A stretch of 64,000 nucleotides of DNA from an uncultured Candidatus Peribacteria bacterium (GCA_964497975.1 CAZCFO010000003.1:6620-70619), one strand, 5' to 3'. Shown: positions 3,257 through 58,322, counted from the stretch's first letter. Numbers and translations are program-made. Notes: generated by a model from the letters alone, not told the origin.

Positions 3257-3277
3257 GTGCGCAGTCTAGCGTCTCGG

Positions 3278-4530: not shown

Positions 4531-4560
4531 GCGGATCCCGCTGACCGGTACACTCTCTCC

Positions 4561-5478: not shown

Positions 5479-5498
5479 GCGCCGGGCGGAGGAGTACA

Positions 5499-17116: not shown

Positions 17117-17144
17117 TTTACAAAATCAAATTTTATGTTATAAT
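17117..17144 (+). promoter_or_regulatory. sigma70-type promoter TTTACA-N16-(TGt)TATAAT, 6 nt before ATG 17151
   Basis: AT-rich island after ftsH. The -10 hexamer is at 17139-17144. Confidence 0.55.
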
Positions 17145-17150
17145 AACATA

Positions 17151-18707
17151 ATGGGAACGATCCTCGGTGAATCTTCTGCGCTCTTTCCCGGCTTCGCGCG
17201 CCCGGAGCTTTCGCATGTCGACCCGGCCGTGCCCGAGCAGCGGGTGCACGCCGACGCGGCGCTGCGTGCGCGGGGCATCCTGGAAACCCGGTGGTCTCTT
17301 GAGCTGGAACAATCGCTGATTCCCCGGATGCTTTCTGCGGATGAGCAGCGCGTGACGGATGAGCGCGTTGCGGCCCTGCGGCAACGGATTTTCGCGCACA
17401 TGAACCGGCGCGTCGCGGAGGCCCGCACACCCGAAGAACGTGCGACCGCGGAGCGGGAGCGGGCCGCCGTGGAGACGTTCGGCGCCAAGGCGCTGTTGCT
17501 CTTCGAGCTTCATGACCTGCATCCCGAGACCAGCCCCGTCCTCCAGAGGCTCTTTGGCGAAGGAAGAGGCGATGGCGGGTACTACGACGCTCCCGGCCTG
17601 CCGGAGTTCAAGTTGAAGCCGGTCCCGTCCGGGCAGTTGCAGACGAACGTGGAATCCCTGCTTCGGGTGATCCAGGAGAAAGCTGCCGAATACGGCTTCG
17701 ACGCGCCCCCGCCGTCCCCTCATCTCAATGCCAGTTTCTGGGATGCCGATGGCAACGTGTGCAATCCCCGTCATCCGCGGTTCACGACCGTTGGAGGACG
17801 GATTGCCTCGGGGGTCGCCCGGGCGGTTTCCCTCGCGGACAAGGCGGTTCCTCTTCACTGCGACGCCTCCATCGGTCCTGACCGGAAGCGCGCGATTCGC
17901 ATGACCGGCGAAGATGACGAAGGGCGTATGGAATTCCGCCTCCAGGGCGACAGCCACGGCATTGCACTGATGCATCTCCCGTCCATGATCGAGGGCGTCA
18001 TCAAGCCCGGCGCCACACAGGGTCTTGATGGTGACCGGCTTATGCCTGCGGCCTCCCGGGCCGTGCTTGCCATGGAAGGGGGCGCGTACAAGATGATTCT
18101 TCATGCGATGCAGGGTTCGCTCGTGGAGAGCGAGGGGCCTTCCACGTACCGGCTGAAGCCGCCGGAGAGGTACGTGATCGACGCTATGCGCAAGAATTCC
18201 TCCGCAATCTGCCGCGAGCTTGGCAAGGAATTCGTGCCCGAGCTCGATAAGGTCGATCTCGACGGCTTGCAGGACGATACGCGGATGCAGGACATTGTCT
18301 GCCGCATGCACACTCCCGATCTTCCCAAGCAGAAGAGCTACGAGGATTTCGTCGCGGCAAAGCTCCAGGCTATCCGCGAGCGGGGCATGGGCCCCCGCGA
18401 ACTTCTGGAGTTCTTCCAGGGCATCAGGATCCGGGAGGAGGACGGCCGATACCAGATCGTCTTTCCCGGCTCGTACCGTCTGTTCGGGGAGTCAAAATCC
18501 GTGGATGCCGCTGCTCTCTCCCGCGCCATCCGGTGCGAGGGCATCGTGCCGACGCTCGTCGCCCCGCATGCCGATGTGGACAAGGCGGAGGTGGCCGTGA
18601 GTCATCTCGCGTCACTCCAGGCGGACTTCCGGGATCGTTTTCAGCATTGCCTGAAGAAGGGCGATGTTTCCTGGCACTTCCGAGGTGGGGGACGATGGGG
18701 AAGATGA
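17151..18707 (+). CDS. hypothetical protein with glutamine-synthetase-like catalytic motifs (GS-fold amidoligase candidate)
   Basis: 518 aa. SPHLNASFWDADGN resembles GS H-x-H/N-x-S-L-W..DG. DRKRAIRMTGEDDEGRMEFRLQGD resembles GS [9 protein letters not shown]...RRIEVRFPD. Motif-level only, compared from memory. Confidence 0.65.
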   Translation: MGTILGESSALFPGFARPELSHVDPAVPEQRVHADAALRARGILETRWSLELEQSLIPRMLSADEQRVTDERVAALRQRIFAHMNRRVAEARTPEERATAERERAAVETFGAKALLLFELHDLHPETSPVLQRLFGEGRGDGGYYDAPGLPEFKLKPVPSGQLQTNVESLLRVIQEKAAEYGFDAPPPSPHLNASFWDADGNVCNPRHPRFTTVGGRIASGVARAVSLADKAVPLHCDASIGPDRKRAIRMTGEDDEGRMEFRLQGDSHGIALMHLPSMIEGVIKPGATQGLDGDRLMPAASRAVLAMEGGAYKMILHAMQGSLVESEGPSTYRLKPPERYVIDAMRKNSSAICRELGKEFVPELDKVDLDGLQDDTRMQDIVCRMHTPDLPKQKSYEDFVAAKLQAIRERGMGPRELLEFFQGIRIREEDGRYQIVFPGSYRLFGESKSVDAAALSRAIRCEGIVPTLVAPHADVDKAEVAVSHLASLQADFRDRFQHCLKKGDVSWHFRGGGRWGR

Positions 18708-18810
18708 AGAAAAGTCAAAGAGCTGTTCGTGATCGCAGTATTGACCTCTTCGGCACCACCGGTTTCGCATGCGTACGTTTTTGATCAACGATGCGCTACA
18801 ATGGGTCCCG

Positions 18811-20118
18811 ATGCAGCCCCTCAGCCCCCTCGACGGCCGCTACGCGAAGTCCGTTGACGCGTTGCGACCGTTCTTCAGCGAAGAAGGCCTGATGCAGGCG
18901 AGAGTCGAAGTCGAAGTGCGGTACTTCATCGCGCTGTCGAAGGAGAAGGGCGTCAAAGAACTGGCGCCCGTCAACAGCAGCCAGGAACGGCTGCTGCTGG
19001 GTTTGTTCGAGAATTTCACCGATGCCTCGTACGCGGCGATCAAGAATTTCGAGAAGACGACCCGGCACGACGTGAAGGCCGTCGAGTACTTCATCAAAGA
19101 GAAGGCCGCGAAGATCCCCGGACTCAAAAAGTCACTCGAGTTCGTCCACTTCGGCCTCACGAGTGAAGACGTGAACAATCTCGCGTACGGCCTGTGCATC
19201 CACCGCGCGATGTTCCAGGTCCTGTCGCCGTCCTTCTGCGGGTTGCAGGACGCGATGACGGCGCTCGCCAAAGAGGCGCGCGGTCTCCGCATGCTCAGCC
19301 TCACGCACGGCCAGCCAGCCACGCCCACCACGCTCGACAAGGAGATCATGGTCTTCATCTCCCGGGTGCACCGCCAGTGCGATCAGCTCTCGAAATTCCG
19401 CATGCAGGGCAAGCTCGGCGGAGCCGTCGGCAACTTCTCGGCGCACAAGGTCGCGTATCCCGACGTGAATTGGGAGAAATTCCGCATCACGTTCGTCAAA
19501 AGTCTCGGCCTGATCCCGCTCGAGCACACCACGCAGATCAATCCGCATGACGACCTGGCCGAGCTCAGCCATCACCTGTTCCGCATCAACACGATCCTCA
19601 TCGGCTTCTGCCGCGACGCGTGGATGTACATCAGCCGCGGCGTGTTCCGCCAGAAGGTCGTCAAAAACGAAGTCGGCTCCTCCGCGATGCCGCACAAGGT
19701 GAACCCCATCGACTTCGAGAACGCGGAGGGCAATCTGGGCCTCAGCAACGCGCTCTTCAGCCACTTCGCGGAAAAACTGCCCATCAGCCGCCTGCAGCGC
19801 GACCTCACCGATTCCACGGTGCAGCGCAACCTGGGCGTCGCGTTCGGCTATCACCTGCTCGCCATCGAATCGCTCAGGCGCGGACTCTCCAAGCTCTCCA
19901 TTGACCGCGACCTGATCGCGTGCGAGCTTGCCGACCATCCCGAGGTGATGGCCGAGGCGATCCAGACGATGCTCCGAAAGCACGGCGTCGACGGCGCATA
20001 CGAGAAGCTCAAAGAACTCACGCGCGGCGAGGCGATCACGCAGGAATCGCTGGAAGTGTTCATCGGCAACCTGGAGATCCCCAAAGCGGAGCGCGAGCGG
20101 CTGCTGGGGATGTTCTGA
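18811..20118 (+). CDS. purB: adenylosuccinate lyase
   Basis: SPLDGRY N-terminus and the SSAMPHKVNPIDFENAEGN signature. Start at 18811 (an in-frame upstream ATG at 18769 is also possible). Confidence 0.93.
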   Translation: MQPLSPLDGRYAKSVDALRPFFSEEGLMQARVEVEVRYFIALSKEKGVKELAPVNSSQERLLLGLFENFTDASYAAIKNFEKTTRHDVKAVEYFIKEKAAKIPGLKKSLEFVHFGLTSEDVNNLAYGLCIHRAMFQVLSPSFCGLQDAMTALAKEARGLRMLSLTHGQPATPTTLDKEIMVFISRVHRQCDQLSKFRMQGKLGGAVGNFSAHKVAYPDVNWEKFRITFVKSLGLIPLEHTTQINPHDDLAELSHHLFRINTILIGFCRDAWMYISRGVFRQKVVKNEVGSSAMPHKVNPIDFENAEGNLGLSNALFSHFAEKLPISRLQRDLTDSTVQRNLGVAFGYHLLAIESLRRGLSKLSIDRDLIACELADHPEVMAEAIQTMLRKHGVDGAYEKLKELTRGEAITQESLEVFIGNLEIPKAERERLLGMF

Positions 20119-31322: not shown

Positions 31323-33092
31323 ATGAATTCCATCCCCGCCGGAATCGAAACATCATTGCTTGCGGCTGGCTTCACTCCGACCGAAGTCCTGGTGGTGCGG
31401 AAGCTGATGGAAAGCGACGCGCTCACCCTGCGCGAGCTTGCCGCGCGTACGGGAAAGGGGATCGGCGTGCTCGATCAGGCGGTAAAGAAGCTTCTCCGCA
31501 AGAACATTCTTCGCCGGGACACCATTAATGATTCCGCAAAGTACACGCTCACTTCCCTCGATCAGGTTTTGCATTGGGTGGAAACCGACATGAACCAAAA
31601 ACGCGAAGTTCTCCAGCGCCAGCATCAGAACTTCGAACAATTCATCCGCACGTTCGAGCAGGATAAAAAGAGGCCCGATATCCAGTACTTTGACGGGCTT
31701 GATGGGCTTGCGACCGCCTATCGGAAACTTCTCGAGCGGGGAAAAGAGATGCTCGCGTACGTTCCGGTCTTTTGCAGCATCGAGGATCACCCGCTGCGCG
31801 ACTTCATGGTGGAATGGTTCCGCATCCGTCGGAATCATGGAGTGTTCTTGCGCGTCATCGCTCACGACACTCCTCTGGGACGCCGGTACGTTTCCCGCGA
31901 TCCGTTCGAATACCGTCAGACGGTTCTGGTGGATGAGAAGACCTACCCCTTTACCTTTGAAAAGATCATCTCGGGGGACACGGTCGCCTGTATTAATTAT
32001 GCCGAAAAACGGGCGTGCCTACTCCGGTATCCGGAGTTGTCCACCATGGAAAAGTCGCTCTTTGAAGGCATTTGGAAGCAGGAACAAAAAAAAGATGTAT
32101 CTATAAAATCCACTGAAGCCATTGTGACAGCAATTAAAGTACCAAATACTGCGACGATACGAGTTCGTGTTCTCTCTGCGCTGCGAGAATTTTTTCTTAG
32201 CAAGAAGAGTGCTGCCATTATTTTGGTAATTATGCTCTTGGCCATAGTTGTAGCATTTGCAGTCCAAGCCTTATCAGAGCCCCATTCTGCAAGTGAAGTT
32301 TCAACAAGGATTTTCAAGTTTATGCTTTCGTTTTCAGCTACTTTCTTATTGTTTATAACAGTTCGCCTAGCTGCTGCCAATAAGTCATTAATAAAGGAAC
32401 TATGGTCGGTATTTAAAATTAAAAAAATTCTGTTAATTGCGGCACTATGTCTTGAACTTTCTTTTGCAATAACATTTGCAATTTATAAATATTCATTAAA
32501 TCAAATAATTGATGAAATCGGAATGAAAACTATGGCAGCAATGGCTACTGCTTCGACGGAAATAAAAACAGAGGATCTAATAAAAATTCAGTCAGCTGAA
32601 GATATGAAAACAGATAGTTATCAAAGCTTATTCCAAAAACTGAATCTAATTCGCACTACAAATCCTCATATAAAATACGTATATATAATGCGGTATTTGC
32701 CTAAAGAAAATGTCTTTGAATTTGTAGTTGATGCTAATTCAAACTTCAATTTGCCTGCGATTGGCCCCGATCTTAATGGAGATGGAATAATCAATCAGGC
32801 AGACGAAAATGTTTTTCCTGGAGTAAAATATCCTGTTGAAGGGAAAATGTTACAAGCTTTGGAAACCCCTTTATATGAATCTGAATTTTTTGCAGATCAG
32901 TGGGGCACTTGGATATCGGCGTATGCCCCACTCAAAAACAATAAAGCGAAGTATGCACTCTTAGGGGCTGATGTTGATATTTCAGATGTTTATGCATCTC
33001 AAAATCGAAAATTTTCGCCATGGTTATGGTTTTCGGGAATCTTTGGCCTTTTGGCTTTATTGTCCATTTTAATCAAGAGTATAAAGCCCTAG
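31323..33092 (+). CDS. membrane-tethered TrmB-family HTH regulator with extracytoplasmic Cache/PDC-like sensor domain
   Basis: N-terminus LLAAGFTPTEVLVVRKLMESDALTLRELAARTGKGIGVLDQAVKKLLRKNIL (TrmB-type wHTH), followed by 3 TM helices. The sensor region YVYIMRYL...EFVVDANS...DLNGDGII...WGTWISAYAPLKN...ALLGADVDI is homologous to the HK sensor at 35408-36874. There is a final TM helix. Confidence 0.75.
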   Translation: MNSIPAGIETSLLAAGFTPTEVLVVRKLMESDALTLRELAARTGKGIGVLDQAVKKLLRKNILRRDTINDSAKYTLTSLDQVLHWVETDMNQKREVLQRQHQNFEQFIRTFEQDKKRPDIQYFDGLDGLATAYRKLLERGKEMLAYVPVFCSIEDHPLRDFMVEWFRIRRNHGVFLRVIAHDTPLGRRYVSRDPFEYRQTVLVDEKTYPFTFEKIISGDTVACINYAEKRACLLRYPELSTMEKSLFEGIWKQEQKKDVSIKSTEAIVTAIKVPNTATIRVRVLSALREFFLSKKSAAIILVIMLLAIVVAFAVQALSEPHSASEVSTRIFKFMLSFSATFLLFITVRLAAANKSLIKELWSVFKIKKILLIAALCLELSFAITFAIYKYSLNQIIDEIGMKTMAAMATASTEIKTEDLIKIQSAEDMKTDSYQSLFQKLNLIRTTNPHIKYVYIMRYLPKENVFEFVVDANSNFNLPAIGPDLNGDGIINQADENVFPGVKYPVEGKMLQALETPLYESEFFADQWGTWISAYAPLKNNKAKYALLGADVDISDVYASQNRKFSPWLWFSGIFGLLALLSILIKSIKP

Positions 33093-33140
33093 CAGTGAAC
33101 ATTACATTTGCTCTTTAAATAGAGTAAAGTTCTTTTTATT

Positions 33141-33491
33141 ATGAAAAATTTTGTATGGGCAATGGCCATTATGGGGGCTGTCGCAATCGCTGCCTTGGCA
33201 GATTCCGTTAGTACCCTTTGGGCAAACGGTAATAATAGATTTTCAATTTATTTATTGTTAATTTTTCTTTTAGGCCCTCTAGTCTTCATAAGCTTTGGTT
33301 TAGTAACGACAAAAGTAGGTTTGGCCATAACATCGGGGGTGGTGAATTCCTTATTGGTACTAACATCTATTTCTATCGGACTTTTTGTTTTTGGAGAGTG
33401 GAATAAAGTTTCCTTTCTTCAGTATGTCGGAATGGCTTTTGCAATTACGGGAATAATTTTTATGTTGTTTTTTCCGAAGGTAAATTCCTAG
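33141..33491 (+). CDS. SMR/DMT-superfamily 4-TM protein (EamA-half / ArnE-like)
   Basis: 116 aa with four hydrophobic helices. Low-GC codon usage. Confidence 0.7.
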   Translation: MKNFVWAMAIMGAVAIAALADSVSTLWANGNNRFSIYLLLIFLLGPLVFISFGLVTTKVGLAITSGVVNSLLVLTSISIGLFVFGEWNKVSFLQYVGMAFAITGIIFMLFFPKVNS

Positions 33492-33494
33492 GCT

Positions 33495-35360
33495 ATGCCT
33501 AAAGCTTTTGAAAAAAAACTTCTTCATGTATCAAATGTTTCGATTAAGAGGCAAGCTGCATCAGAAAAAGAGGGCAGCTATTTGGAAATATTAAGCTTTG
33601 AACGAATTAGCAAAAAAACAAATGCTTTTGCAGATCACATTCAAAAAAATCTTGAAAAAATCACAAATGTGCTTTTGGAATATGAAAGTTATGAAGTAGT
33701 AATGGACGAGATTTCACGTTCGCTAGATTTGTTACAAAATTTACAGGAAAACAGGACCTACTTCTCCTTAAGGATTGGGAATATTGTCGCCTTTTTACCT
33801 CGTAACCAGCCTCTTTATGCATTTACATGTTTTGTGATCGTCCCATCACTGATGGCAACAGAAGTACACTTTAGAATTCCTCACAGCATGAAAAAGTTTT
33901 TTCCTCAATTATTAGACATTCTTGAGGTAAGTGACTTTTTTCCAAATGTAAAAATTTCTAAAAAGGAACGAGTGGAATTTTTAAGTGAGCATTCCTCATT
34001 AAGATTTGATCCACTCACAAATCGGGCATTGCCTTTAACTGAGGCGGTAATATTTACTGGAGCCTCACATCATGCTGAAAAATTACGTTTAGTTTTTGAT
34101 AAGCGAACCCTGTTTATTACAAATGGAGCAGGCCACAACCCTTTAATTGTCAGTTGCGATGCAGATATGCAAGCGGCAGTTACAGCGGCAGTTAGTCTGC
34201 AATTTTATAATCAAGGCCAGGATTGCGCTGCTCCGAATGCAGTTTTAGTTCATTCTAAAATATTTAATAAATTTGCAAAATTGCTCAGGGAAAAAATTAG
34301 TCATCTTAAGGTTGGGCCATATAAAGATCGATCTTGTCGGATAGGACCCATCAGTGACTCTAGGGATTTGGTTAGAATACAAACCATATTAGTGGATAAT
34401 GAGAAATGGTTGGACCCAAATACTCCTGGCGTAATTTCAACAGCTCAATCCCTTGTAATGCCGACTATTATTAATAAGCCCCTACAGGAAGGAGGTAATT
34501 TTACAGAAGTATTTGCACCAATACTTTTTTTGCAAAAATATAACGACGACCCAAGTCTATCTTTGTATTTTGAGGATAAAAGCTATGCACGAAATGCAAT
34601 GTACGTAACGCTTTATGGTAGCAGTTCATATGTAGAATCCTTGGTGGGTAAAACAGTGCATGGAAAAATACTCCACGATACGGATTCCATATTAATTAAT
34701 AAGCATTTGCACGAAAAAGGTATTGAAAGAGGGACTAAGCCGTATGGTGGATATGGTATTGGCGCTTCAAGTCTTAGTATTAATTCGAAAACAATTTGCA
34801 TGCCGACCCTTCCTCAGCGCGATATCTATGAGCATCTTGCAAAACCGTTTTTAAATGAGAAAGAAAGGAGTATTCAGCAAGAAATGATCAGTCGTGCTTC
34901 CATCCTTCTCCCGAAAGACATAAAAAAATTCTTGGCATTTAGATCAATTGAGGACAAGGAAAAACAGCAAATATCCTTATTAGATTCTTACATTGACTTG
35001 CAGGGAATGAAAGTGGACGGAAAAAGATATGTAAAACTACAACCTGAAAATAGTTATACGCTTCTTGATAAGCCAAACATTCCATATGCAGCTCATTTGC
35101 ATCCAAAGGACCTACAAAATATTAGATTACTAAGAGAGTTTTTAAAAATTGATAAGAAAATTTCTCCCGAAGAGTTTTCAAGGTTTTTATACGATTTACC
35201 CAAGGGACGGGAGGAAGCTTCGGAAGCAAATCACACAGCACAAGCGAACTTCTTTACACACATCTATTATTTGGTATTTGGGAAATCAACAGGTCCTCGA
35301 CTTGCTAGATTTCTTTTGGAAGTTGATAAGCAAAAGATATGTGAACTGTTGGATGTATAA
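33495..35360 (+). CDS. aldehyde-dehydrogenase-superfamily domain fused to a class-I lysyl-tRNA-synthetase-like C-terminal domain
   Basis: ALDH core: FTGASHHAEKL, LFITNGAGHNPLIV (the ELGGK position lacks Glu), YNQGQDCAAPNAVLVH (catalytic Cys motif GQ.C.A), LKVGPY. Tail: SPEEFSRFLYDL...FFTHIYYLVFGKSTGPRLARFLLEVDKQKICELL resembles the LysRS-I C-terminus (..Y..L.GK.RGPRLASFL..), compared from memory. Confidence 0.7.
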   Translation: MPKAFEKKLLHVSNVSIKRQAASEKEGSYLEILSFERISKKTNAFADHIQKNLEKITNVLLEYESYEVVMDEISRSLDLLQNLQENRTYFSLRIGNIVAFLPRNQPLYAFTCFVIVPSLMATEVHFRIPHSMKKFFPQLLDILEVSDFFPNVKISKKERVEFLSEHSSLRFDPLTNRALPLTEAVIFTGASHHAEKLRLVFDKRTLFITNGAGHNPLIVSCDADMQAAVTAAVSLQFYNQGQDCAAPNAVLVHSKIFNKFAKLLREKISHLKVGPYKDRSCRIGPISDSRDLVRIQTILVDNEKWLDPNTPGVISTAQSLVMPTIINKPLQEGGNFTEVFAPILFLQKYNDDPSLSLYFEDKSYARNAMYVTLYGSSSYVESLVGKTVHGKILHDTDSILINKHLHEKGIERGTKPYGGYGIGASSLSINSKTICMPTLPQRDIYEHLAKPFLNEKERSIQQEMISRASILLPKDIKKFLAFRSIEDKEKQQISLLDSYIDLQGMKVDGKRYVKLQPENSYTLLDKPNIPYAAHLHPKDLQNIRLLREFLKIDKKISPEEFSRFLYDLPKGREEASEANHTAQANFFTHIYYLVFGKSTGPRLARFLLEVDKQKICELLDV

Positions 35361-35407
35361 GCAAATTAACTCTTTATTGAAAGAGCCATTTGTGCTAGAA
35401 TATTAAG

Positions 35408-36874
35408 ATGGATTCTCAGTCCAAGACAAAAAAGAAGTGGCAGTCAACATTAATACAAGGGTTCATTGTATTAGTAGCTATTCTAATAACAGCAGGGGTT
35501 TCTTGGTTTTTGTATGAGCATACCGTTAATCTTTTAACTGATAACTTGCGTCAGCGACTTCTTTCTATAGGAACCACTCAAGTAGCTAATATTGATCCGT
35601 CAGATGTAGAAAAATTGCAAAAAGAAGATGATTGGAAACGACCCGAGTGGGCCAGAGTTGTAGGGCAATTAAAGAGGGCAAAAAATAACAACTCAAATAT
35701 TGTTTTTATGTACATTTTTAGAAAGAAAGGAAATGATGCCACGCAAATGGAATTTGTAGCAGATGCAGAGTCAATTAATCCATATGCCAACATTGATACA
35801 GACTCTTCAAATGACGTTGATGCTAATGGAGATGGAAAAATTGAACCGGATGGAGCTGACCAATTACAATGGCCCGGGCAAGATTATCCAGAGCCACCGG
35901 ACGAAGCCTTTCTGGCATATGACGGACCTCTTACCAATAAGGATCTCTATGCTGATGCCTATGGGCAAGTACTCACAGGTTATGCACCCATAAAAAATGG
36001 TAGTGGGAAAGTAATCGCAATCCTAGGTACTGATATAAAAGCCAATGACTTCTTTACGGTTACACGACAAACACTTTATCCATTTTTAGCTTTCATTATT
36101 TTGCTTATAGGGATTTTGCTCATCCTTGCCAGTAGCCTTATTAAAATTTGGTCCAAGCAAGTGGATTTGATTGTTGAACTAGATCGTCAGAAAGACTCTG
36201 TTTTGCATATGGTTGCCCATCAATTTAAAGGGCCTGTTTCCACCATTAACTTCACTACGGAGCTGCTTCTCGATGGCACTTATGGGAAGCTTTCCCCTGA
36301 GCAGCAGGAGAACGTAAATGTTATTCGTACGGCTTCGCAAAAGATGGGATCGCAATCAGAAATGGTCTTGGATGCTGCAAAAATTACGCTCGGGAAGCTG
36401 CCGCTTGAACCCAAGCCCGTTGAGCTTGATCAGCTCTTCAAGGAAGTAGTGAAGGAGGCCGAGACTCACGCAAAGGAACGCAAAGTGAATTTGAAGGTTG
36501 TTCTTCCCAACGAACCGCTTCCCACAGCGACTCTCGATCGGAGATATACACAGCTGGCCTTCGATAACCTTCTCAGTAATGCCATTAAATACACCGCTCT
36601 GAAAGCGGAGGGCGGCAGTGCTGAATTCATCGTCCAAATGCAGGGTAAGACGTTACGTGCTTCCGTGAAGGACACCGGCATCGGTATCCCCAAGGCAGAA
36701 CAGGACAATATCTTCAAGGAACTCTATCGTGCCTCGAATGCTGGCAAGGATGGCAATGGGCTTGGTTTGCACGTCACCAAGGGCGCCATCGAAGCCCAGG
36801 GCGGCAAGCTGTGGTTTGAAAGCGAAGAAGGGAAGGGAACGACGTTCTTTGTGGAGCTTCCCTTGAATTCTTAA
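35408..36874 (+). CDS. sensor histidine kinase with Cache/PDC-like periplasmic domain
   Basis: TM1, sensor (IVFMYIFRKK...EFVADAES...DANGDGKI...YGQVLTGYAPIKN...AILGTDIKA), TM2, H-box HMVAHQFKGPV, N box LLSNAIKYT, G boxes DTGIGIP and GNGLGLHV. Confidence 0.88.
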   Translation: MDSQSKTKKKWQSTLIQGFIVLVAILITAGVSWFLYEHTVNLLTDNLRQRLLSIGTTQVANIDPSDVEKLQKEDDWKRPEWARVVGQLKRAKNNNSNIVFMYIFRKKGNDATQMEFVADAESINPYANIDTDSSNDVDANGDGKIEPDGADQLQWPGQDYPEPPDEAFLAYDGPLTNKDLYADAYGQVLTGYAPIKNGSGKVIAILGTDIKANDFFTVTRQTLYPFLAFIILLIGILLILASSLIKIWSKQVDLIVELDRQKDSVLHMVAHQFKGPVSTINFTTELLLDGTYGKLSPEQQENVNVIRTASQKMGSQSEMVLDAAKITLGKLPLEPKPVELDQLFKEVVKEAETHAKERKVNLKVVLPNEPLPTATLDRRYTQLAFDNLLSNAIKYTALKAEGGSAEFIVQMQGKTLRASVKDTGIGIPKAEQDNIFKELYRASNAGKDGNGLGLHVTKGAIEAQGGKLWFESEEGKGTTFFVELPLNS

Positions 36875-37308
36875 AAAGTCGCCTCCGCGTACCAGTGAGA
36901 GTTTTCTCGATTTTCAACTCCTAACATGTGAATTTTGTCCTTCAGGAAAAAATAAAGCATGGGAGTATCGTTATCAGGCGATGGCTCAGGCTCAAGATGC
37001 ACACTTGGGCTATTAGGGTCAGGATCGAGATTAAAAAGAAGATCGACCTGTCCATTTTGGTCAGCGGTGGCTGGTGTATTTAAAGCAGGAATGTCGCACC
37101 AAGTTGATGGAGCTGTATTTTCAATCGTTGCTTCATAATCTCCATCTCTTACAGTTTTGTCAGAGCAACTTAAGCCCGCTCTCTGGATCACTGCTCCAGT
37201 CATTTTCTGGCCCATAAAAACAGAAACGACAAGATTATGCTTAGGGGAGTAAGAAAAAATTTGGCAGCCTGCTAAGATAAAACATCCGATAAAGAAAATC
37301 TTTTTCAT
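36871..37308 (-). CDS. lipoprotein, hypothetical (candidate immunity protein)
   Basis: MKKIFFIGCFILAGC lipobox. 145 aa. ATGA overlap with the stop of the 1327-aa gene. Low GC. Confidence 0.7.
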   Translation of the reverse strand: MKKIFFIGCFILAGCQIFSYSPKHNLVVSVFMGQKMTGAVIQRAGLSCSDKTVRDGDYEATIENTAPSTWCDIPALNTPATADQNGQVDLLFNLDPDPNSPSVHLEPEPSPDNDTPMLYFFLKDKIHMLGVENRENSHWYAEATF

Positions 37309-40300
37309 GATTCTATACGGTAAATAGTGGTGTAAGTTGCCTTCAAATTCAACGAATTAAAGGACATGAAATGATATCGTGGGGTATTATCTGGCTGTTT
37401 CCACAGAGTGGGTTGAATGCCTGCATTTTTTTCCTCAGCGGTTAATTCTCTTGGGCTGTGAGTGAATTCATCAATAACACCACGTGTAATTTCTAAATGA
37501 GTATTTATATCTCCAGGAAAATCTTTAATTTCCATCCAATTTTCATTATTTCCGAAATTCGTATCAAGAACCCACAAACCATCGCTTTGAATTTTTGTAA
37601 TCAACATTGTGTGCGGAATGCTCCCATATCCCATTTGGACAACATCTCCGACTTTCACATCAGAGCTATTATTAATCATTTCCTCAAACGTTTTGTCGCC
37701 TCGAATAGATGCAACAACAGTTACGTTGGCAGTAGTACTCGAAAATGAATTCCATTCATACGAGCCTATCCCTTTAATGTCGCTGGTTTTATTTGTCGGC
37801 AGTTTATTAAGAGTAATTCCACTCGATTGTAGCCAGTTTTGAATCCAAGTTTTGCACTGCTCCAGTCCAGTTCCGTGAAGTTCTCCAATAAAGGGATATG
37901 TGCCATTATTTTGATATTTAAGGGTAGGAATAATGGAATTCATCACATACGTCAGGATTTTCTGATTTGTTTCCGGCAGTTCATTAAAGTTGTCGATGCT
38001 TAAAACCTCTTGGGCAATTTTCTTTTGTGCGTCAGTAAGATCATCCCAGTTGCGCGGAATGCCACTTGTGTTGGCAGCTCTCTCCACCACCTTCTGCACT
38101 CCTACCTGCAGAGCCGGCTTCAGAGAATTGAAAAACGAGGTGAATGAGGACGACACTCCCGTTACAAGCTGCTCCGTTCCTTGCATTTTGGCAGAAATCC
38201 ATTTGGATACTTCGGAAAGGTCTCTTGCGATGAGCGTAATGGGATTGAACGTCGAAGGAGGAATGCCCCCTGCCGTCGCAACGAGATAGGCCGATTGCCG
38301 CAGGGTGAATGTGCCGTCGGAATTGCGCTGCAGAATGAGTCCCTCACCCATGGAATTTCTATAGGCGATGGCGGTGCCCTCCTGAGTGACAAATTCCTTG
38401 GGAGGCTCCACTTTCGAAGCGGCCACAACGGCGCCGGAGAACTTCGTAAACTCGGCCACCGTCCACCCCGCCCGGTCCGGTGCGCCGGCGACGGCAACGA
38501 AGACTTTATCGAGTGCAAGCTGCTGTTCAGTCGTCCGTTGCGCAATGGGAATGTTCTGGACGTGCAGCAGCCCCGCTGCCGCCAAGGCATCGTGCAACGC
38601 CTGGTCCTGCTCCTGCGAGCGCACGCTCGCGGCATGCTCGGCGTTGAACACGGCGATGCTGTCGGCGCAGATGCGCTCGTACTCCTGTTCGTAAATCTCT
38701 TCGCACCTCGCCTTGCACATCCGGTAGATCTCGTCCCGCGACGGGAGATTGGGGATGGAGGCCTGCGCATTGTGTCCAGTGGGGTCCTTGATGGGGGAGG
38801 TGTTGCGCGGCAGCACCACGCCGTTCATTTCCATCAGCACCGTGTTCCAGGTGTCCTGCACCGCGACGAGATAGGCGTCCCACATGCGCCCTTTCGCGAC
38901 TTCAATGGCATTGCGCAGGTCTGACTGGCCCTGGGGGCTCAGCTGGTCATAAGCGGCGCTGCCCATCTGCCACCGCGCGATATCGGTACTGGACGAATTG
39001 ATCGTGACGACCCCCGGCCCGCGGTCAAAGAGGTTCAATTTCTCGATGATGCCCGTTGCGAGGAGGTTCTGCAGCGCGGGGTTCACGTTGCCCATGCCGT
39101 ATTCGCCCTGCCGCGGAACGCTCGTGGGGACGAAAGCCGCTTTCAGATCGACCTGGATGGAATCGCACAGATCGTCCGCGCCGCTCGTGATGGTCAGGAC
39201 GATACTGTCGCCGGCTGCAAGTCCGAAGAGGCGCTGGTCGAGGGGGAGGTTGTCGAAATTGGAAAGAGCCCCGCCGTTGGCGATGGCCTTCCTCCACTGC
39301 TCGCGCATCGTGCCATCCGCCGAGCGGATACTCAGCGCCACCGTTACGCCGTCCCCCACGCGTGCGTCCAGATCGGTGATCGATCCGCGCAGCATCGCGG
39401 TGCCCGAACCGTTGGGGGTGAACAACACCCGGACGTCTTTGTCTGTCGTCGGGTGGACAAGAAGGGTCTGGCCGGCGAGAGGAGCGGCATTGCCGGTTCC
39501 TTCCAGGGCGGCCGGTGCATCGCTGCGGTTGACCGCCACGCTCAGCGGAAGGTCGCGCGTGCCCGCCGGCGGCGCGTAGGCGATCTGCGAGAGATTGAAG
39601 GCGCTCGGCTGGCCGGTGTAGGTATCACCCATTACGTACGCTCCGGCCTTGGTGCGGATATTCCAGTCCCGGGCATCGAGCGGAATCTCCATGACCGATG
39701 TGCCCGCGGCGATATCCAGCGTCACGGGATTTTTCCACGGCCGGATGTATTCGAGCACGTACCCCTCCGCGAAATTCCGCAGGGTGAACCGCTGCTTCTG
39801 CGTGTCGCCATCGGGGTAGATCTCCACGCGCGGCGTGATCCTGGGGATCTCTTTCCCCTGCGTTCCGTCCGGCGACACGCCGCTGAGCGTCCCGATGGGG
39901 GCTAGCTGGGAGAAGGAAAGGGGAGTCGCATTGCCTCCGGTCGTCACCACTTCCGCGCTCCAGGTTCCGATGACGGAATGGGAAAACAGATCACCGGTGG
40001 CGGTCATTGCGGCGGGCATATCCCAGCTTTGCATCTGCCTGTTCACGATCGTCTGGATTGCCGGAAGATCGCCCCGGATGGTTTCGGGAACAACCCATCG
40101 CGGCACCTTGATCACGCGGTCGCCGGCTTCGGGCGTGATCGTCGCGCTTCCAAGAGTGAATGACGCCGTTCCGCTGAAGTACTTCGTCCGCAGGTACAGC
40201 CAGTCCATGTCGCCGGTGATCTCCACGCCCATGGACATCCGCACAAAGGATTCCTTCACCGTCGCCTGAGGGACGAGCGGCGCTTGGGGAGAGAGCAGCT

Positions 40301-41288
40301 CCTGTTGTTTTGCGAGGAACATCTCCACCAGTCCCTCCACTTCCGCATCCAGCGCATCCACGAGCAGCGTTTCGTTCTGCAGCGTCTGCCAGACCGTCCC
40401 CAGTTCTTCCTGCCGTTCCTCGAGAAGGTTTTCCGTTTCCGAGAACGCGGCGAAGACCGCGTCATATGCCGCGCGTGAGGCCTTCACTTCCCCCCGCAGT
40501 CGCTCCACGGCCGCATCCAGGGACGACAGCGCTCTCTCGGCGTCCTGGCGGCGGGTCTGGGCCCCGGCAATGTCGGCCGGCAATACGTTCAGCCGGTCCT
40601 GCAGGCGGGCGAGCTCCGCTTCGTCCGCCGCTTTCGCCGCGTTGACCGCGGTGATCTGCGCAGATACGACCGTGCGCTGCGCCTGCACGCCGTCGATCTG
40701 GGGCTGCAGAATTTTGATCGAGGATTCCAGCGAGGATTTCTTGCTGAGCAATTTCTTGTCTCTGGGACGCTTGGTCAGTTCCTGCGTGACGATTACAAGG
40801 TCTTTCTGCAGCGTCTCCATTTTGGTGAGCATCGGGGCAAGCGTCGTCTGCAATTGCTCGCTTTGCGCGCCAAATGAGGTGAGCTGCGACTGAAATGCGG
40901 TGATTTCCCCCTGCAACGCGGAGACTCTCTGCAGCGCGGAGCCCTGCTCCGCACGCAGGGACGTTTCCTGTCCCTGAAAGGTCTGAACGTTCTGGGTCAA
41001 GGGGGGCCGCTGGTCGAGGGCTCCCTGCAGCTGACTGTTCACGACGTCCCACGCCGAGCGCGCCGCTTCCGTCCCCGCTTGTCTGGCGCCCAAATCCTGC
41101 GTGAGCAGGGAGACGTCGTTTTGCAGGAGGCCCGCGCGGGATGTGACGGTATCCAGGACGGCGTGCTCCTGCTGCCACGCCACTATCTGCGGGTCGGCGA
41201 CCAGGGCGGGAGGAACGCTCACTAGCGCGGGCGTGTCCCGGGTTTCGAGTTGTTCAACGTTCAAGGCTGTGTCGCGGCGGTTGTCCAT
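37305..41288 (-). CDS. 1327-aa protein: N-terminal coiled coil, large central region, C-terminal CHAP/NlpC-P60-like cysteine peptidase domain
   Basis: About 330 aa of Q/L/A/E-rich heptad-like sequence. The C-terminus has GLEQCKTWIQNW (Cys), GSIPHTMLITKI (His) and LWVLDTNF (polar third residue), arranged as in CHAP domains. No classical signal peptide. Confidence 0.85.
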   Translation of the reverse strand: MDNRRDTALNVEQLETRDTPALVSVPPALVADPQIVAWQQEHAVLDTVTSRAGLLQNDVSLLTQDLGARQAGTEAARSAWDVVNSQLQGALDQRPPLTQNVQTFQGQETSLRAEQGSALQRVSALQGEITAFQSQLTSFGAQSEQLQTTLAPMLTKMETLQKDLVIVTQELTKRPRDKKLLSKKSSLESSIKILQPQIDGVQAQRTVVSAQITAVNAAKAADEAELARLQDRLNVLPADIAGAQTRRQDAERALSSLDAAVERLRGEVKASRAAYDAVFAAFSETENLLEERQEELGTVWQTLQNETLLVDALDAEVEGLVEMFLAKQQELLSPQAPLVPQATVKESFVRMSMGVEITGDMDWLYLRTKYFSGTASFTLGSATITPEAGDRVIKVPRWVVPETIRGDLPAIQTIVNRQMQSWDMPAAMTATGDLFSHSVIGTWSAEVVTTGGNATPLSFSQLAPIGTLSGVSPDGTQGKEIPRITPRVEIYPDGDTQKQRFTLRNFAEGYVLEYIRPWKNPVTLDIAAGTSVMEIPLDARDWNIRTKAGAYVMGDTYTGQPSAFNLSQIAYAPPAGTRDLPLSVAVNRSDAPAALEGTGNAAPLAGQTLLVHPTTDKDVRVLFTPNGSGTAMLRGSITDLDARVGDGVTVALSIRSADGTMREQWRKAIANGGALSNFDNLPLDQRLFGLAAGDSIVLTITSGADDLCDSIQVDLKAAFVPTSVPRQGEYGMGNVNPALQNLLATGIIEKLNLFDRGPGVVTINSSSTDIARWQMGSAAYDQLSPQGQSDLRNAIEVAKGRMWDAYLVAVQDTWNTVLMEMNGVVLPRNTSPIKDPTGHNAQASIPNLPSRDEIYRMCKARCEEIYEQEYERICADSIAVFNAEHAASVRSQEQDQALHDALAAAGLLHVQNIPIAQRTTEQQLALDKVFVAVAGAPDRAGWTVAEFTKFSGAVVAASKVEPPKEFVTQEGTAIAYRNSMGEGLILQRNSDGTFTLRQSAYLVATAGGIPPSTFNPITLIARDLSEVSKWISAKMQGTEQLVTGVSSSFTSFFNSLKPALQVGVQKVVERAANTSGIPRNWDDLTDAQKKIAQEVLSIDNFNELPETNQKILTYVMNSIIPTLKYQNNGTYPFIGELHGTGLEQCKTWIQNWLQSSGITLNKLPTNKTSDIKGIGSYEWNSFSSTTANVTVVASIRGDKTFEEMINNSSDVKVGDVVQMGYGSIPHTMLITKIQSDGLWVLDTNFGNNENWMEIKDFPGDINTHLEITRGVIDEFTHSPRELTAEEKNAGIQPTLWKQPDNTPRYHFMSFNSLNLKATYTTIYRIES

Positions 41289-41556
41289 GAGAAAGGATGG
41301 GAAGAAATCCTGGCCATCAAAGCGTGTACGACGGAGGGGTGTCAGATGCCTGAGGAGTCTTTCTTTTGCATTCCCATTTTTTTGTCTTCAACTAGGGCTC
41401 TTCCCGGTTCCATATCCCTGTGGAACAGGGGCCAATATTCATACGATTCACAATAGCCAAGCCTTCGATGCAATGTCCATGAGTGCACCACCTTTCACTT
41501 GAACTGCTTCCGCTTGGGTCTCCATACTGTCCCCTGAACTTTCCCCACAGCCCGTT

Positions 41557-54368: not shown

Positions 54369-54710
54369 ATCGCATACAAAAGAGCTGTGATTGCACGTGA
54401 AGTAGGATTTGCACAGAATCCCGTTCTTTCGCATAACGAAAAAAATCCTGCAGATCTCATCACTCTGTCGGACCAATCTTTCAATTTTCAGCCTTTCAGA
54501 GCTCTCTTTGGCGTATGTTGCCTCATCGATATCTGCGGCTGGAGTGGATTCCTGCTTTCGCTCTTGCCTATGACATCCGGCTTTGAATGTGTGGGCAACA
54601 ATGGTCCAGATCGCGGTAGAGATTCTCGCTTTTGATCTATTATATGGCTCCGGAAGCCTTGACTTGCTAAATGCCATCAATATGATTTGGATGATTTCCC
54701 CCTCCTCTTT

Positions 54711-57700
54711 ATGTCGAGTTCCTTCTCGCGCGTGCGGTCCGCATTGAGTACGTTTAGTACGACCGCGCTTGTTTTGAATATTGCTGTTGGTTCGCTCGTC
54801 GCGGCGCTGCCGGTGTTCTCACCGATCGCTGCAGCGGCGACTTTTGGTCCGAGTAATGCCGGCGCAGGCGCGAATGTGACGGGTGTCGGATCGGTAAACT
54901 GGTCGAACGCCGGATTCATCATCGCCGATGATACGAATTACGCCACGGCTACTCTCGGAGCATCAGCAACGTCTCGTTATCTGCAGGGCACCAATTACGG
55001 CTTCGCTATTCCCACTGGTGCGACGATTAACGGAATTCAGGTATCCATCATGCGTGAAACTTCTGACGTGACTCTGGGTGCCAGTATCGATGACAATATC
55101 GTCCGCCTGGTAAAGGCAGGGACTATTGTTGGTGATAACAAAGCAACATCCGCTGATTGGCCTACCTCTATGACTGCAGCCAGCTATGGCGGGCCGTCCG
55201 ATTTATGGGGCACAACCTGGACTGCAGCAGAAATCAATGCGAGCAATTTCGGTGTCGTCCTTTCAATTTTGAATGAAGGAATTGTGACTTCAAGAACGGG
55301 GAGAGTTGATTACATGCAGATTACCGTCACGTATACCCTTTCCACGGGAACTATTCACGTGACCAAGACTGCGGTGGGCGGCGACGGGACATTCAATTTT
55401 ACGAATGCGGCCAGCTTTGCGATTACCACCACCGGCGGTACGGGAACGCACGATATCACCGACTTGTCACCGGCGTCGTATTCGGTGGATGAGACGGCGC
55501 CCACGGGCTGGACGGTCACGAGCAACGGTTGCCAGAACGTGTCGGTGACCGCAGGCAATACCACAAACTGCACGATCACGAACACCAAGCTCGGTACGGT
55601 GACGGTTATCAAAAATTCCCTTCCGGTCAGTGCGCAGTCCTTCCCGTTCACCACCACGATCGGAGGTGGCGAGGGGGGATTCAGTCTCAGCGATGATGGC
55701 GAAGGCTCGGAGGACACGGTTGAATTTACGAGCGTCGCTCTCGGCAGCCACACGATTACCGAAGGATCGGTCGCGGGCTGGAGCCTCACGGGTCTCGTGT
55801 GTACCGGCGGCGATGCCGACGGATCCACCGATCTCGTGACCCGTACCGCCACGATCGACGTGGACGCGGGCGAACACATCACCTGCACGTTTACCAACAG
55901 TCAGTACGGAACGCTGCACATCACCAAGAACGCGTACGGTGGCGATGACGAATTCGACTTCACGATCGATGGCGAGGGCAGCGACGTCCTTGAGTCCGCT
56001 TCCATCACCACGACCGCCGGCACGGGCACCGCCGATGTGTCTCTCCCCGTGGGCGATTACAATGTGTCCGAAACTCTTCCCGAAAGCGGCGCATGGCAGC
56101 AGGTGAGCAACGGCTGTTCCTTTGCCGTCATCCAGCCCGGTCTGACCACGAATTGCACCGTCGAGAACGTTAAGCGCACCCGCATCTCGGTGGGCAAGGA
56201 GACGACCAACGGCGGCGAGGCGAACTTCACCTTCACCCGGAAATTCGGCAGCAGCAGTAGCAGCAGCTTCTCGCGTGGCGTCACGGAACCAGGCGTTCCT
56301 GTGGGCCTCGATTCGTTCTTCGAAATCTTTGCGTCGGTCAGCTCCAGCAGCGCGGCTGCGATCCCCGTCGAAATCGTCGAATTGAATCTTCTGAACTGGA
56401 ACTTCAACCAGGTGCAGTGCACCCTCAACGAGAGCCCGATGAGCGTCACGCCCCAGTTGGGAGAAGACGGCGTTCTGATCGGTTTCAACGCCCAGGCAGG
56501 CGATCAGATCCAGTGCCTCTTTAACAACAGAATGTCCGTGTGTGGCAACAGCGTTGTCCAGAGCGGCGAGCAGTGCGACGACGGCAATGCGACGGTCGGC
56601 GACGGATGCTCCGACACCTGCCAGTACGAACTTGGCTGGTCGTGTAATCACAACGAGCCGAGCGTTTGCACCACGAGCTGCGGCGACAATATCGTCGCCG
56701 GAGTGGAGGAGTGCGACAATGACCTCACCAATACCAGCGGCGACGGATGCGACGCCTTCTGCCACATCGAAGTCTGTGGCGATGGCGTTATCAACAATAC
56801 GCATGTCGAGGGTGAAACGACCGTTACCGAACAGTGCGACGACGGCGATGACGATGCGGGCGACGGATGCTCCGATACCTGCCAGATCGAAATCGGCTAC
56901 GCGTGTCCCACGGTCAACGAGTCGTGCGTCGCAATCTGCGGCGACGGCCTGGTCCTCGGCGGCGAGCAGTGCGACGATGGCGAGAGCAGTTGCGGCGACG
57001 GCTGTTCGTCCTCGTGCGAAGTCGAAACCGGTTACCAGTGCATCAACAGCACCGAAACCGATCCCAACAGCACCTGCGAGCTACATCTGGATTTCGGCGA
57101 CGCGCCGGATGGCGAGGGTGAAGACGCCGGATATCCGACTCTGCTGGAAGACAACGGCGCCCGTCACGTTATCGTCGAGGAGTACATGCTCGGTGCGACG
57201 ATCGACGGCGAGCCCAATGGCCAGCCGGATTTTGCGGCCGCTGGCGACGGTTCGGATGAAGACGGCGTTTCGTTCACGACGTCACTCACCCAGGGTGCCA
57301 CCGCAGGTGTGACGGTAGTCACCTCTCTGCCGGACGGCGAAGGCGAGGATGACGGTTATCTGGAGGCCTGGGTTGACTTCAACCAGGACGGCGACTGGGA
57401 CGATGAGGGCGAACACGTCATCGACAATCTCTCTCTTACGAGCGGCACGCATGCTCTGACGTTCTCCGTTCCCGCAGGCGCGGTTCTGGGCGAGACCTAC
57501 GCCCGGTTCCGCTGGAGCAGCATCGGCGGCATCGAGGAAAGCGGTCTTGATGTTACGGGGTACGCGCCGAATGGCGAAGTAGAGGACTATCTGGTCACGA
57601 TCACGGCTCCCGTTACCGAGACTACCTCCGACGACGAAGACGAGGGTCCGGTTTCGGATGACGGCGGCAACGGGGGTTCCCGCGGCAGCCAGACGAACCG

Positions 57701-58322
57701 TATTGGAGCGGCTATCAACAGGTTGATCTCCAACTTTATCGGCGACACCCCTCCTCCCGCGTTCGGAGGCACCGATGACGCTCCGTTCTCCGACGAGCAG
57801 AACGATCTGCTGCGGAGAATCAATCTGATGATCGGCTGCAACGCGTCGAATTCCGTCTTCCATGCTGCTGCTCAGATTATCGCCAAGAAGTTCAGCGGCA
57901 ACACGGCCGCCATCGAGGCTCAGATGCAGCTCATCTGCACGCAGCTTGCGGAGCGGTCGGGCATGAACAAGCCCGTGGTCCAGATCAAGCCCCGCCAGAT
58001 TGTGCTGGCCGAGGACGGTTACCCCGTTTCGAGCGACGATCTCTGGAACCTCTGCGTTCGTGGCAAGGCGACGCTTGCGGATTTCCGCAGCCACCCCATG
58101 GTGATCGACCGCGACACCGGCAAAACTGCGTCGAAAACATGCGGACTGTATCGCATATCCGGCACTCAGATCTGGAAGTTCCCGGATGATCTGTTCCTCA
58201 CGGGGCTCATCATCAATCCGTCAAAGTCCGGCAAGCCCGTCGTCAGCGTGTTCCAGAAGGGCTACGCGGTGCTGCCGTCCGCTCAGCGGACCGCCGAGGC
58301 CAGTTCGGCTGCGGCTCAGTAA
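54711..58322 (+). CDS. giant surface protein: N-terminal domain, prealbumin-like (SpaA/Cna-B-like) repeats, DUF4215 Cys-rich repeats, GEVED domain, C-terminal domain
   Basis: Repeats GT(I/L)H(V/I)TK.A.GGD..F.F. CG(N/D)..V...E.CDDGN...GDGCS..C (Myxococcus-type Cys-rich repeat). FGDAPD...NGEVEDY (GEVED). Start at ATG 54711, downstream of TTGACT-N16-TATGAT (54659-54686). Confidence 0.88.
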   Translation: MSSSFSRVRSALSTFSTTALVLNIAVGSLVAALPVFSPIAAAATFGPSNAGAGANVTGVGSVNWSNAGFIIADDTNYATATLGASATSRYLQGTNYGFAIPTGATINGIQVSIMRETSDVTLGASIDDNIVRLVKAGTIVGDNKATSADWPTSMTAASYGGPSDLWGTTWTAAEINASNFGVVLSILNEGIVTSRTGRVDYMQITVTYTLSTGTIHVTKTAVGGDGTFNFTNAASFAITTTGGTGTHDITDLSPASYSVDETAPTGWTVTSNGCQNVSVTAGNTTNCTITNTKLGTVTVIKNSLPVSAQSFPFTTTIGGGEGGFSLSDDGEGSEDTVEFTSVALGSHTITEGSVAGWSLTGLVCTGGDADGSTDLVTRTATIDVDAGEHITCTFTNSQYGTLHITKNAYGGDDEFDFTIDGEGSDVLESASITTTAGTGTADVSLPVGDYNVSETLPESGAWQQVSNGCSFAVIQPGLTTNCTVENVKRTRISVGKETTNGGEANFTFTRKFGSSSSSSFSRGVTEPGVPVGLDSFFEIFASVSSSSAAAIPVEIVELNLLNWNFNQVQCTLNESPMSVTPQLGEDGVLIGFNAQAGDQIQCLFNNRMSVCGNSVVQSGEQCDDGNATVGDGCSDTCQYELGWSCNHNEPSVCTTSCGDNIVAGVEECDNDLTNTSGDGCDAFCHIEVCGDGVINNTHVEGETTVTEQCDDGDDDAGDGCSDTCQIEIGYACPTVNESCVAICGDGLVLGGEQCDDGESSCGDGCSSSCEVETGYQCINSTETDPNSTCELHLDFGDAPDGEGEDAGYPTLLEDNGARHVIVEEYMLGATIDGEPNGQPDFAAAGDGSDEDGVSFTTSLTQGATAGVTVVTSLPDGEGEDDGYLEAWVDFNQDGDWDDEGEHVIDNLSLTSGTHALTFSVPAGAVLGETYARFRWSSIGGIEESGLDVTGYAPNGEVEDYLVTITAPVTETTSDDEDEGPVSDDGGNGGSRGSQTNRIGAAINRLISNFIGDTPPPAFGGTDDAPFSDEQNDLLRRINLMIGCNASNSVFHAAAQIIAKKFSGNTAAIEAQMQLICTQLAERSGMNKPVVQIKPRQIVLAEDGYPVSSDDLWNLCVRGKATLADFRSHPMVIDRDTGKTASKTCGLYRISGTQIWKFPDDLFLTGLIINPSKSGKPVVSVFQKGYAVLPSAQRTAEASSAAAQ

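Follow-up and report, generated by a model that had tools for sequence, protein, structure and literature searches.

What might a giant bacterial protein that ends in a putative cell-wall hydrolase do together with a lipoprotein whose gene overlaps its own stop codon? This question is raised by a 64,000-nucleotide stretch of DNA (the window) from an uncultured Candidatus Peribacteria bacterium (GCA_964497975.1 CAZCFO010000003.1:6620-70619), in which the original prediction had recognized an effector/immunity-like pair made up of a coiled-coil protein with a CHAP-like tip and the product of the small gene that follows it. Peribacteria, which belong to Candidatus Peregrinibacteriota, are a lineage of the candidate phyla radiation (CPR) with small genomes and about 58% GC, and they are thought to be symbiotic (PMC4736985). 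We read the pair as a wall-hydrolase effector and its co-translated envelope inhibitor, one representative of a two-gene module found widely across Candidatus Peribacteria, and we put the probability of this reading at roughly 0.55. Three elements are central to the argument (aa, amino acids; ORF, open reading frame):

37305..41288, minus strand: the giant protein gene, a 1327-aa ORF whose start may lie further upstream.
37308..38081, minus strand: the C-terminal tip of the giant protein (aa 1070-1327), papain-like and CHAP-related, with candidate catalytic residues C1145, H1226, and D1242 (plus N1244).
36871..37308, minus strand: the gene of the partner lipoprotein, a family-B protein of 145 aa with the lipobox LAGC and Cys15, translationally coupled to the giant gene.

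Both genes are found as predicted, and the giant protein is called identically on independent Logan contigs. The ATG of the lipoprotein gene sits in an ATGA that includes the stop codon of the giant gene (junction GAATCATGAAAAAG). The N-terminus of the lipoprotein, MKKIFFIGCFILAGC, is a short signal peptide with a lipobox at L12-A13-G14-C15; this L-A-G-C at positions 12-15 (MKKIFFIGCFILAG followed by the Cys) conforms to the bacterial lipoprotein pattern [LVI][ASTVI][GAS]C, and lipid modification is predicted. The 145-aa protein itself has no match in Pfam or NCBIfam; its family-B homolog at locus L005 matches Pfam LPAM_1.

When the last 271 residues of the giant protein were compared exhaustively, by HMMER, with 1.84 billion representative proteins, 48 relatives of the tip emerged; most of them are proteins of 1100-1900 aa that match over their C-terminal 200-260 residues. 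Queried with the tip, with the middle body, or with the profile built from 37 tip sequences, a word-indexed search of 5.8 billion proteins gave zero matches, even to the query itself; given the 48 relatives found exhaustively, these negatives should not be taken as orphan status. With the whole giant protein as the query, no relative was found in GTDB genomes. In an alignment of 37 tip relatives (25% mean column identity), the columns of C1145, K1146, W1148, W1179, G1214, Q1218, T1227, G1237, D1242, and N1244 are invariant, and H1226 is kept in 36 of the 37. C1145 lies in EQCKTWIQNW (codon 37854..37856), H1226 in PHTMLITKI (37611..37613), and D1242 and N1244 in LDTN (codons 37563..37565 and 37557..37559), the very motifs that had been quoted as a Cys/His arrangement. 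Given that these residues are invariant or nearly so across relatives this divergent, the motifs are not due to chance. The extent first given for the domain, 37560-37890, is too small; the folded domain occupies about 37308..38081.

With the 37-sequence alignment, AlphaFold yielded a model of the tip with a pLDDT of 92.4 and a pTM of 0.88; the single-sequence model was unusable (pLDDT 36). In the model, which uses tip numbering, Cys76 begins a helix (76-86), His157 lies in one strand (155-165), and Asp173 lies in another (168-174). The predicted structure thus has the papain-like layout: a helix begins with the Cys, and neighbouring strands carry the His and a third, polar residue. Foldseek against the PDB library placed at the top the CHAP endolysin Ly7917, Tae2, the Gsp amidase, a staphylococcal CHAP domain, and PlyC, together with trypanothione synthetase-amidase, an NlpC/P60 endopeptidase, and PlyGRCS; the highest-ranked entries are mostly CHAP proteins (5d74, 2k3a, 3a2z, 4f88, 2vob, 8xyf; best E 7e-3, TM 0.27-0.36). 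In the viral library, the top matches are CHAP-domain proteins, peptidase C51, Lysin A, and endolysins (best E 1e-3). Like CHAP (PF05257; Ly7917 5d74, PlyC 4f88, Gsp amidase 3a2z) and Amidase_6 (PF12671), the tip opens a helix with the Cys of a QC..W motif, and it continues with a GD(I/V)(I/V)Q...HT strand and then a D-x-N strand, comparable to the E-x-N of CHAP. Unlike these families, it includes an insertion of ~60 aa and, at its N-terminus, an additional helical subdomain, and searches of solved structures by sequence or profile returned no real match, only chance matches to ARX1.

The Pfam search that had been proposed as a check gave a divided answer. The window protein has no match to CHAP, and NlpC/P60 (PF00877) does not match the tip at E up to 10 and is not among the families listed for the 37 members. 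Amidase_6 gives a partial match just under threshold (22.0 bits against a cut-off of 23.2), which covers profile positions 88-133 of 163 around the His strand. When the relatives were scanned singly, weak matches to Amidase_6 appeared in 21 of 37 and weak matches to CHAP in 9 of 37 (best CHAP E ~2e-4). We conclude that the tip is probably a papain-fold Cys-His-Asp hydrolase that is nearest to CHAP and lies outside every curated family. The CHAP/NlpC-P60 character proposed at the outset is supported to this extent by the sub-threshold Amidase_6 and CHAP matches, the confident model, and the position of CHAP proteins and Tae2 atop the fold searches.

The adjacent small gene, suggested earlier to be a partner of the tip, is conserved as such. 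In all 24 non-redundant loci with downstream DNA, a small ORF begins -3 to +18 nt from the stop codon of the tip gene; among the 21 junctions tabulated, the genes overlap by ATGA in 14 and by TAATG or TGATG in 5. The products of these genes carry a signal peptide with a lipobox at 20 of the 24 loci and a signal peptide with C-terminal SLH domains at 3 (SLH match E = 1.5e-21); the anchor is unclear at 1. With either anchor, the functional domain of 150-200 aa is predicted to be tethered in the wall zone. Iterative searches with hidden Markov models (HMMs) sorted the partners of CHAP-like tips into a large superfamily A, family B, family D, and several singletons. Family B consists of the window lipoprotein and the partners of P0014 (L005), P0007 (L042), and P0016 (L050), each encoded downstream of its tip. 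Partner diversity is far above tip diversity, with at least three unrelated families plus the singletons, and no partner has a Pfam match to known immunity families.

Relatives of the tip occur almost entirely in Candidatus Peribacteria. We scanned one genome per GTDB species with a degenerate DNA pattern, GD..Q-x7-13-HT-x9-G.WV, that had been validated on the window and one relative. Ten of the 15 matches fall in metagenome-assembled Candidatus Peribacteria, Peribacterales, or Peribacteraceae; one, on a 3.5-kb contig assigned to a gammaproteobacterial bin, is a true tip, and four are due to chance. A metagenome scan with the same pattern added about a dozen further true loci. In the viral contigs of IMG/VR, the scan gave no true tip and only chance matches to terminase-like ORFs, so a phage origin is unsupported.

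Directly before the tip, nearly all giants carry a module of about 200 aa; an HMM of this pre-tip module matched 19 frames from relatives, including every relative with enough upstream sequence. At two loci (L006 and L049), it precedes an M23-like tip instead of a CHAP-like one. L006 encodes a 1700-aa giant (original coordinates 869..5971, minus strand) with an LEDR leader, coiled coils, and an M23-like metallopeptidase end. This end scores 26.9 bits in Pfam, where the cut-off is 28.7 (E = 5.6e-6), and in the PDB it weakly matches a lytic endopeptidase. A CHAP-tip module precedes this giant, and a coupled lipoprotein gene and a convergent kinase gene follow it, at the same genomic position as in the window. 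At L049, a CHAP-tipped giant and its SLH partner are followed by a 440-aa 5'-truncated ORF. This ORF begins within the pre-tip module, ends in an M23-like tip homologous to that of L006, and forms an orphan cassette (17129..19228) with its own ATGA-coupled SLH partner. The M23 partners of L006 and L049 are homologous to each other and to no CHAP-associated partner; partner families are fold-specific at the level of CHAP versus M23. L028 has two CHAP-tip modules in tandem within 8.6 kb.

The proposed survey for alternative C-terminal domains on related scaffolds therefore bore out the expectation at the level of the family, in the form of the M23-like tip, and not at the level of orthologs. P0002, the only ortholog of the middle body found (collinear, 52% identity, window aa 333-956 versus P0002 aa 521-1148), keeps the same tip family. 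Given the shared pre-tip module, the alternative M23-like tip with a partner family of its own, the orphan cassette, and AT-rich 3' ends, the 3' cassette of tip and partner appears, by analogy, to behave across the family like a polymorphic-toxin cassette.

The AT-rich ends bring in two further features:

31900..38100, no strand: an AT-rich block with 35-47% GC versus ~62% in the rest of the window, both edges of which lie inside intact genes.
35408..36874, plus strand: a convergent sensor histidine kinase gene (Pfam HisKA and HATPase_c), a conserved neighbour of the module.

The contrast between a low-GC tip and lipoprotein and a high-GC body was correctly predicted. GC content at third codon positions (GC3) in the giant gene steps down from 0.8-0.9 up to about aa 900, to 0.5-0.63 at aa 960-1080, and to 0.1-0.47 from aa 1081; in the lipoprotein gene it is 0.37. 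A body-to-tip drop in GC3 of 0.15-0.45 is seen in 14 of 16 loci and sets in at the tip or at the pre-tip module. The tips of Rhs and CDI proteins are likewise AT-rich relative to their bodies.

The block itself also contains the histidine kinase gene, a gene resembling aldehyde dehydrogenase (ALDH), a gene for a small membrane protein, and part of a gene for a winged helix-turn-helix (wHTH) sensor, inside which, still intact (31323..33092), the left edge falls. In several relatives, the AT-rich stretch extends over 4-6 kb and takes in homologs of the kinase, EamA-like, ALDH-like, and wHTH-sensor genes. GC3 in the block is 0.30-0.45 versus 0.83-0.90 in the flanks, and the block recurs over the same cluster in L004, L015, L021, L042, and L048, relatives whose housekeeping genes have diverged. 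Its length of 6 kb, the housekeeping-type signalling genes inside it, and its recurrence in diverged relatives show that the block did not arrive recently as a cassette; it is a lineage-wide trait of the gene cluster, older and larger than a cassette. The window DNA recurs with 100% identity in contigs assembled separately from three other runs, one of which (19.7 kb) covers the entire block and both junctions. Because identical DNA was assembled independently in this way, the junctions are real, and we rejected an assembly chimera.

One part of the original prediction is not supported, namely that tip and lipoprotein had been swapped as a unit in this gene. The tips of the window and P0002 are 62% identical, above the 52% of the bodies, and their partners come from families B and A, respectively, and have the signal peptide alone in common. 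We rejected a recent unit swap here because P0002 has the same tip family, the partner has been exchanged independently, and the recurrent 6-kb block is older.

How might such a pair work? We infer that the giant would be exported as a modular, fibre-like protein with an LE.LE.R leader, a coiled-coil stalk, and a variable middle, and that it would bear at the C-terminal end of the fibre a cysteine hydrolase of the CHAP/NlpC-P60 kind. This hydrolase most likely cleaves peptide or amide bonds in the peptidoglycan of another cell, either a host or a competitor, or in the local wall. The overlapping gene would be co-translated to give a small protein tethered in the wall zone of the producer itself, by lipid here and by SLH domains in some relatives. 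There it would bind and block the hydrolase, shielding the producer in the role of an immunity protein or inhibitor.

The closest template for this arrangement is the polymorphic toxin. In the survey by Zhang et al (2012; PMC3482391), such systems consist of a leader, a stalk, a pre-toxin domain, a C-terminal toxin, and a downstream immunity gene, and they include NlpC/P60 toxins (Tox-NlpC/P60). The module has the same order of parts as the CDI/Rhs/LXG-type systems described there, with the small gene directly downstream; its family has alternative tips after one pre-tip module, a 5'-truncated orphan cassette, and very diverse partners. Unlike those systems, the module has no trafficking domain, repeat, or pre-toxin domain of a known type, and no known secretion-system genes lie nearby. 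Two tip types have been seen, tips and partners are shuffled independently, and the window protein is without a pre-tip module. The CPR Peribacteria are absent from the lineages given for polymorphic toxin systems in the sections of that survey consulted.

Similar pairs serve dedicated secretion systems. As with Tae-Tai of type VI secretion (T6SS; Tae2, 6win) and TelC-TipC of the type VII system (T7SS; PMC6193138), the gene of a presumed wall-zone effector lies directly 5' of the gene for a small secreted or membrane-tethered protein, and Tae2 is among the top fold matches of the tip. Unlike Tae-Tai, TelC-TipC, and X-Tfe/X-Tfi of the type IV system (T4SS), the module has no T6SS, T4SS, or T7SS genes that we could see near it, its effector is a fibre of 1100-1900 aa and not small cargo, and its partners are unrelated to known immunity families. 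The immunity proteins of X-Tfe/X-Tfi are lipoproteins located in the envelope.

Several observations weigh against reading the pair as an effector and its inhibitor. The tip reaches no curated family threshold, unlike CHAP and Amidase_6 proteins, and its Foldseek matches are weak overall, with E values of 1e-3 to 7e-3, none below 1e-3, and TM scores of 0.2-0.4. A comparison of the tip profile with one canonical CHAP protein (from L042) detected nothing (probability 1.7%), a result that is uninformative rather than contrary. The giant protein has no classical signal peptide and no known secretion or trafficking domain. The window protein has no pre-tip module; we considered a degenerate copy and rejected it, as the HMM gave no match even at relaxed thresholds. 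There is no orphan tip/immunity cassette in the window either: the lipoprotein gene abuts the convergent kinase gene, with which it shares 4 nt at the 3' ends (36871..36874), and this overlap leaves no space for a terminator or orphan cassettes. The tip types found number two, CHAP-like and M23-like, and both are wall hydrolases.

The partners raise a further difficulty. The similarity of two loci in their tips is uncorrelated with their similarity in partners (Spearman 0.09), and in the reverse of the window/P0002 case, L021 and L029 have near-identical partners with tips that are only 42% identical. Close tips with unrelated partners, as in the window and P0002, are unusual for cognate toxin-immunity pairs. 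Of the effector/immunity pairing as first put forward, then, a functional pairing of the tip with the lipoprotein is supported and would be best explained in this way; the co-variation of tip and partner is absent among CHAP-like tips. Finally, the linkage to the kinase and the wHTH sensor could equally mean a regulated housekeeping function in the envelope.

This last point belongs to the alternative that survives best, although we regard it as unlikely: a regulated autolysin, an oversized counterpart in design of PcsB, CwlO, RipC, and EnvC, which would remodel the wall of its own cell in division, growth, or the passage of pili or fibres, with the lipoprotein as its regulator or activator under the control of the kinase and the wHTH sensor. 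An N-terminal coiled coil (matches at aa 57-307) followed by a C-terminal CHAP-like or M23-like domain does mirror the FtsEX-controlled hydrolases PcsB (CHAP), CwlO and RipC (NlpC/P60), and EnvC (M23-like) (PMC10694151, PMC10214136). In a patescibacterial operon, likewise, one coiled coil bears either a papain-like or a Gly-Gly peptidase (PMC12419801), so that the two enzyme types alternate on one scaffold as they do here. The conservation of the kinase and wHTH-sensor neighbourhood and the lack of tip-partner co-variation would also be in keeping with such a role. However, no FtsE/FtsX or other ABC gene is present among the ORFs scanned or read within ~6 kb, and no VanZ gene is adjacent. The giants are 3-5 times larger than PcsB, CwlO, RipC, and EnvC, are without a signal peptide, and have variable middles; their coupled partners are hypervariable and come from unrelated families. 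The modules are multicopy, with tandem copies and an orphan cassette, and their divergence far outpaces that of housekeeping genes: the bodies of the window protein and P0002, its closest relative, share 52% identity, and the BipA proteins of the two genomes share 89%. In size, copy number, possession of orphan cassettes, and rate of evolution, the module is a poor match for a housekeeping enzyme.

Less probable still is an anchoring module, in which the tip would dock the fibre to the envelope through its lipid- or SLH-anchored partner and the giant would act as a host-attachment adhesin, with catalysis secondary or devoted to covalent attachment. The partner is always envelope-anchored, with lipobox and SLH interchangeable, and the bodies of relatives include modules of the adhesion type (beta-propeller, laminin-G). 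Peribacteria have large, strain-variable extracellular proteins thought to serve attachment (PMC4736985). Against this, the strict conservation of Cys, His, Asp, and Asn points to catalysis, and the partners come from unrelated families. The tip can be replaced by an unrelated M23-like hydrolase, which is expected of alternative enzymes and not of a docking surface. A pure docking role is therefore unlikely, given that the catalytic residues are invariant and that an unrelated enzyme fold can take the place of the tip.

We give almost no weight to an artefact or foreign DNA, that is, a GC break from chimeric assembly or from a recent in-frame fusion of a phage or other insertion, for although the GC shift is sharp inside two genes and the fold matches include phage lysins and tail proteins, the same junctions occur in three other assemblies, the body-to-tip GC3 drop and the gene order recur in diverged relatives, no phage genes lie nearby, and IMG/VR holds no true match to the tip.

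The part of the giant protein upstream of the tip divides as follows:

41226..41258, minus strand: a leader-like motif, VEQLETRDTPA (aa 11-21), which occurs as [LF]E.[LF]E.R..P near the N-terminus of most full-length relatives.
40299..41156, minus strand: the coiled-coil stalk (~aa 45-330), with weak matches of coiled-coil type only.
38421..40298, minus strand: the middle body (aa 331-956), of high GC and with no known domain.
38082..38420, minus strand: a linker of 113 aa (aa 957-1069) with GC3 of 0.5-0.63, which occupies the place of the pre-tip module of relatives and is unrelated to it.

In its fuller form, [LF]-E-x-[LF]-E-x-R-x-x-P-[SA], the leader-like motif is found 10-150 aa from the start of most full-length giants (for example L006 and L007). 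The motif is also present in the canonical 333-aa CHAP protein of L042 (7317..8318, minus strand). None of the proteins with the motif, this CHAP protein included, has a classical signal peptide; because of this, we regard LE.LE.R..P as a candidate lineage-specific export or sorting leader. A literature search on the LEDR-type motif found nothing, although N-terminal motifs of a similar kind may occur in Planctomycetes. The stalk is matched weakly by Pfam ATG16, Fez1, Tropomyosin, and Filament and by NCBIfam SMC across aa 57-307. The middle body has no Pfam match, and the bodies of giants other than P0002 differ from it, being mosaics with coiled coils, beta-propellers, and laminin-G domains. 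The giant frame stays open for 33 codons 5' of the ATG at 41288 (41289..41387, minus strand), and the upstream peptide DFFPSFLM is similar to the N-terminus of P0002 (MDAFFPPLFM). Translation may in fact begin upstream or at a non-canonical codon.

The genes around the module are also shared. The order BipA ... SLH/Calx-beta / giant / small gene / kinase is common to the window and the P0002 genome, and homologous kinases adjoin the module in L006, L015, L016, L021, L042, L048, and the P0002 contig. The wHTH-membrane protein (31323..33092, plus strand) has a winged-helix N-terminus and a membrane-sensor C-terminus, and its extracytoplasmic C-terminal domain (aa 355-589) and the sensor domain of the kinase (aa 23-244) are homologous. 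In relatives, both genes keep their place beside the giant gene. Between them, 33495..35360 (plus strand) encodes a 621-aa ALDH-like protein with a C-terminal extension of ~250 aa, which falls far under all NCBIfam equivalog cut-offs and is kept beside the kinase in L048 (51% identity). Further away, 54687..58322 (plus strand) encodes a 1211-aa secreted protein with Cys-rich repeats of the GDGCSDTCQ type and Ig-like repeats, resembling the cysteine-rich large extracellular proteins reported for Peribacteria (PMC4736985).

No description of the module was found in the literature searched, and the tip, the pre-tip module, the partner families, and the leader motif have no curated models. We regard the module as a candidate effector/immunity system of the polymorphic-toxin-like kind, in a lineage from which no such system has been characterised. 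A bolder version, which we offer only tentatively, is that it would be the first recognised polymorphic-toxin-like weapon system of the CPR, in which giant fibres exported by LE.LE.R..P leaders would bear exchangeable wall-cutting warheads (CHAP-like or M23-like), accompanied by exchangeable envelope-anchored antidotes, to breach the walls of hosts or rivals, its AT-rich ends maintained through continual cross-species recombination.

To our knowledge, Peribacteria have no cultured representative. The module is a concrete, lineage-specific candidate for the means by which ultra-small, host-dependent CPR bacteria attach to host cells, open them, or compete for them. With it come a new papain-like family, a pre-tip module, several families of partners, and possibly an export signal that is also new, and its persistent AT-rich cassette in GC-rich genes offers a clean case for the study of maintained compositional gaps.

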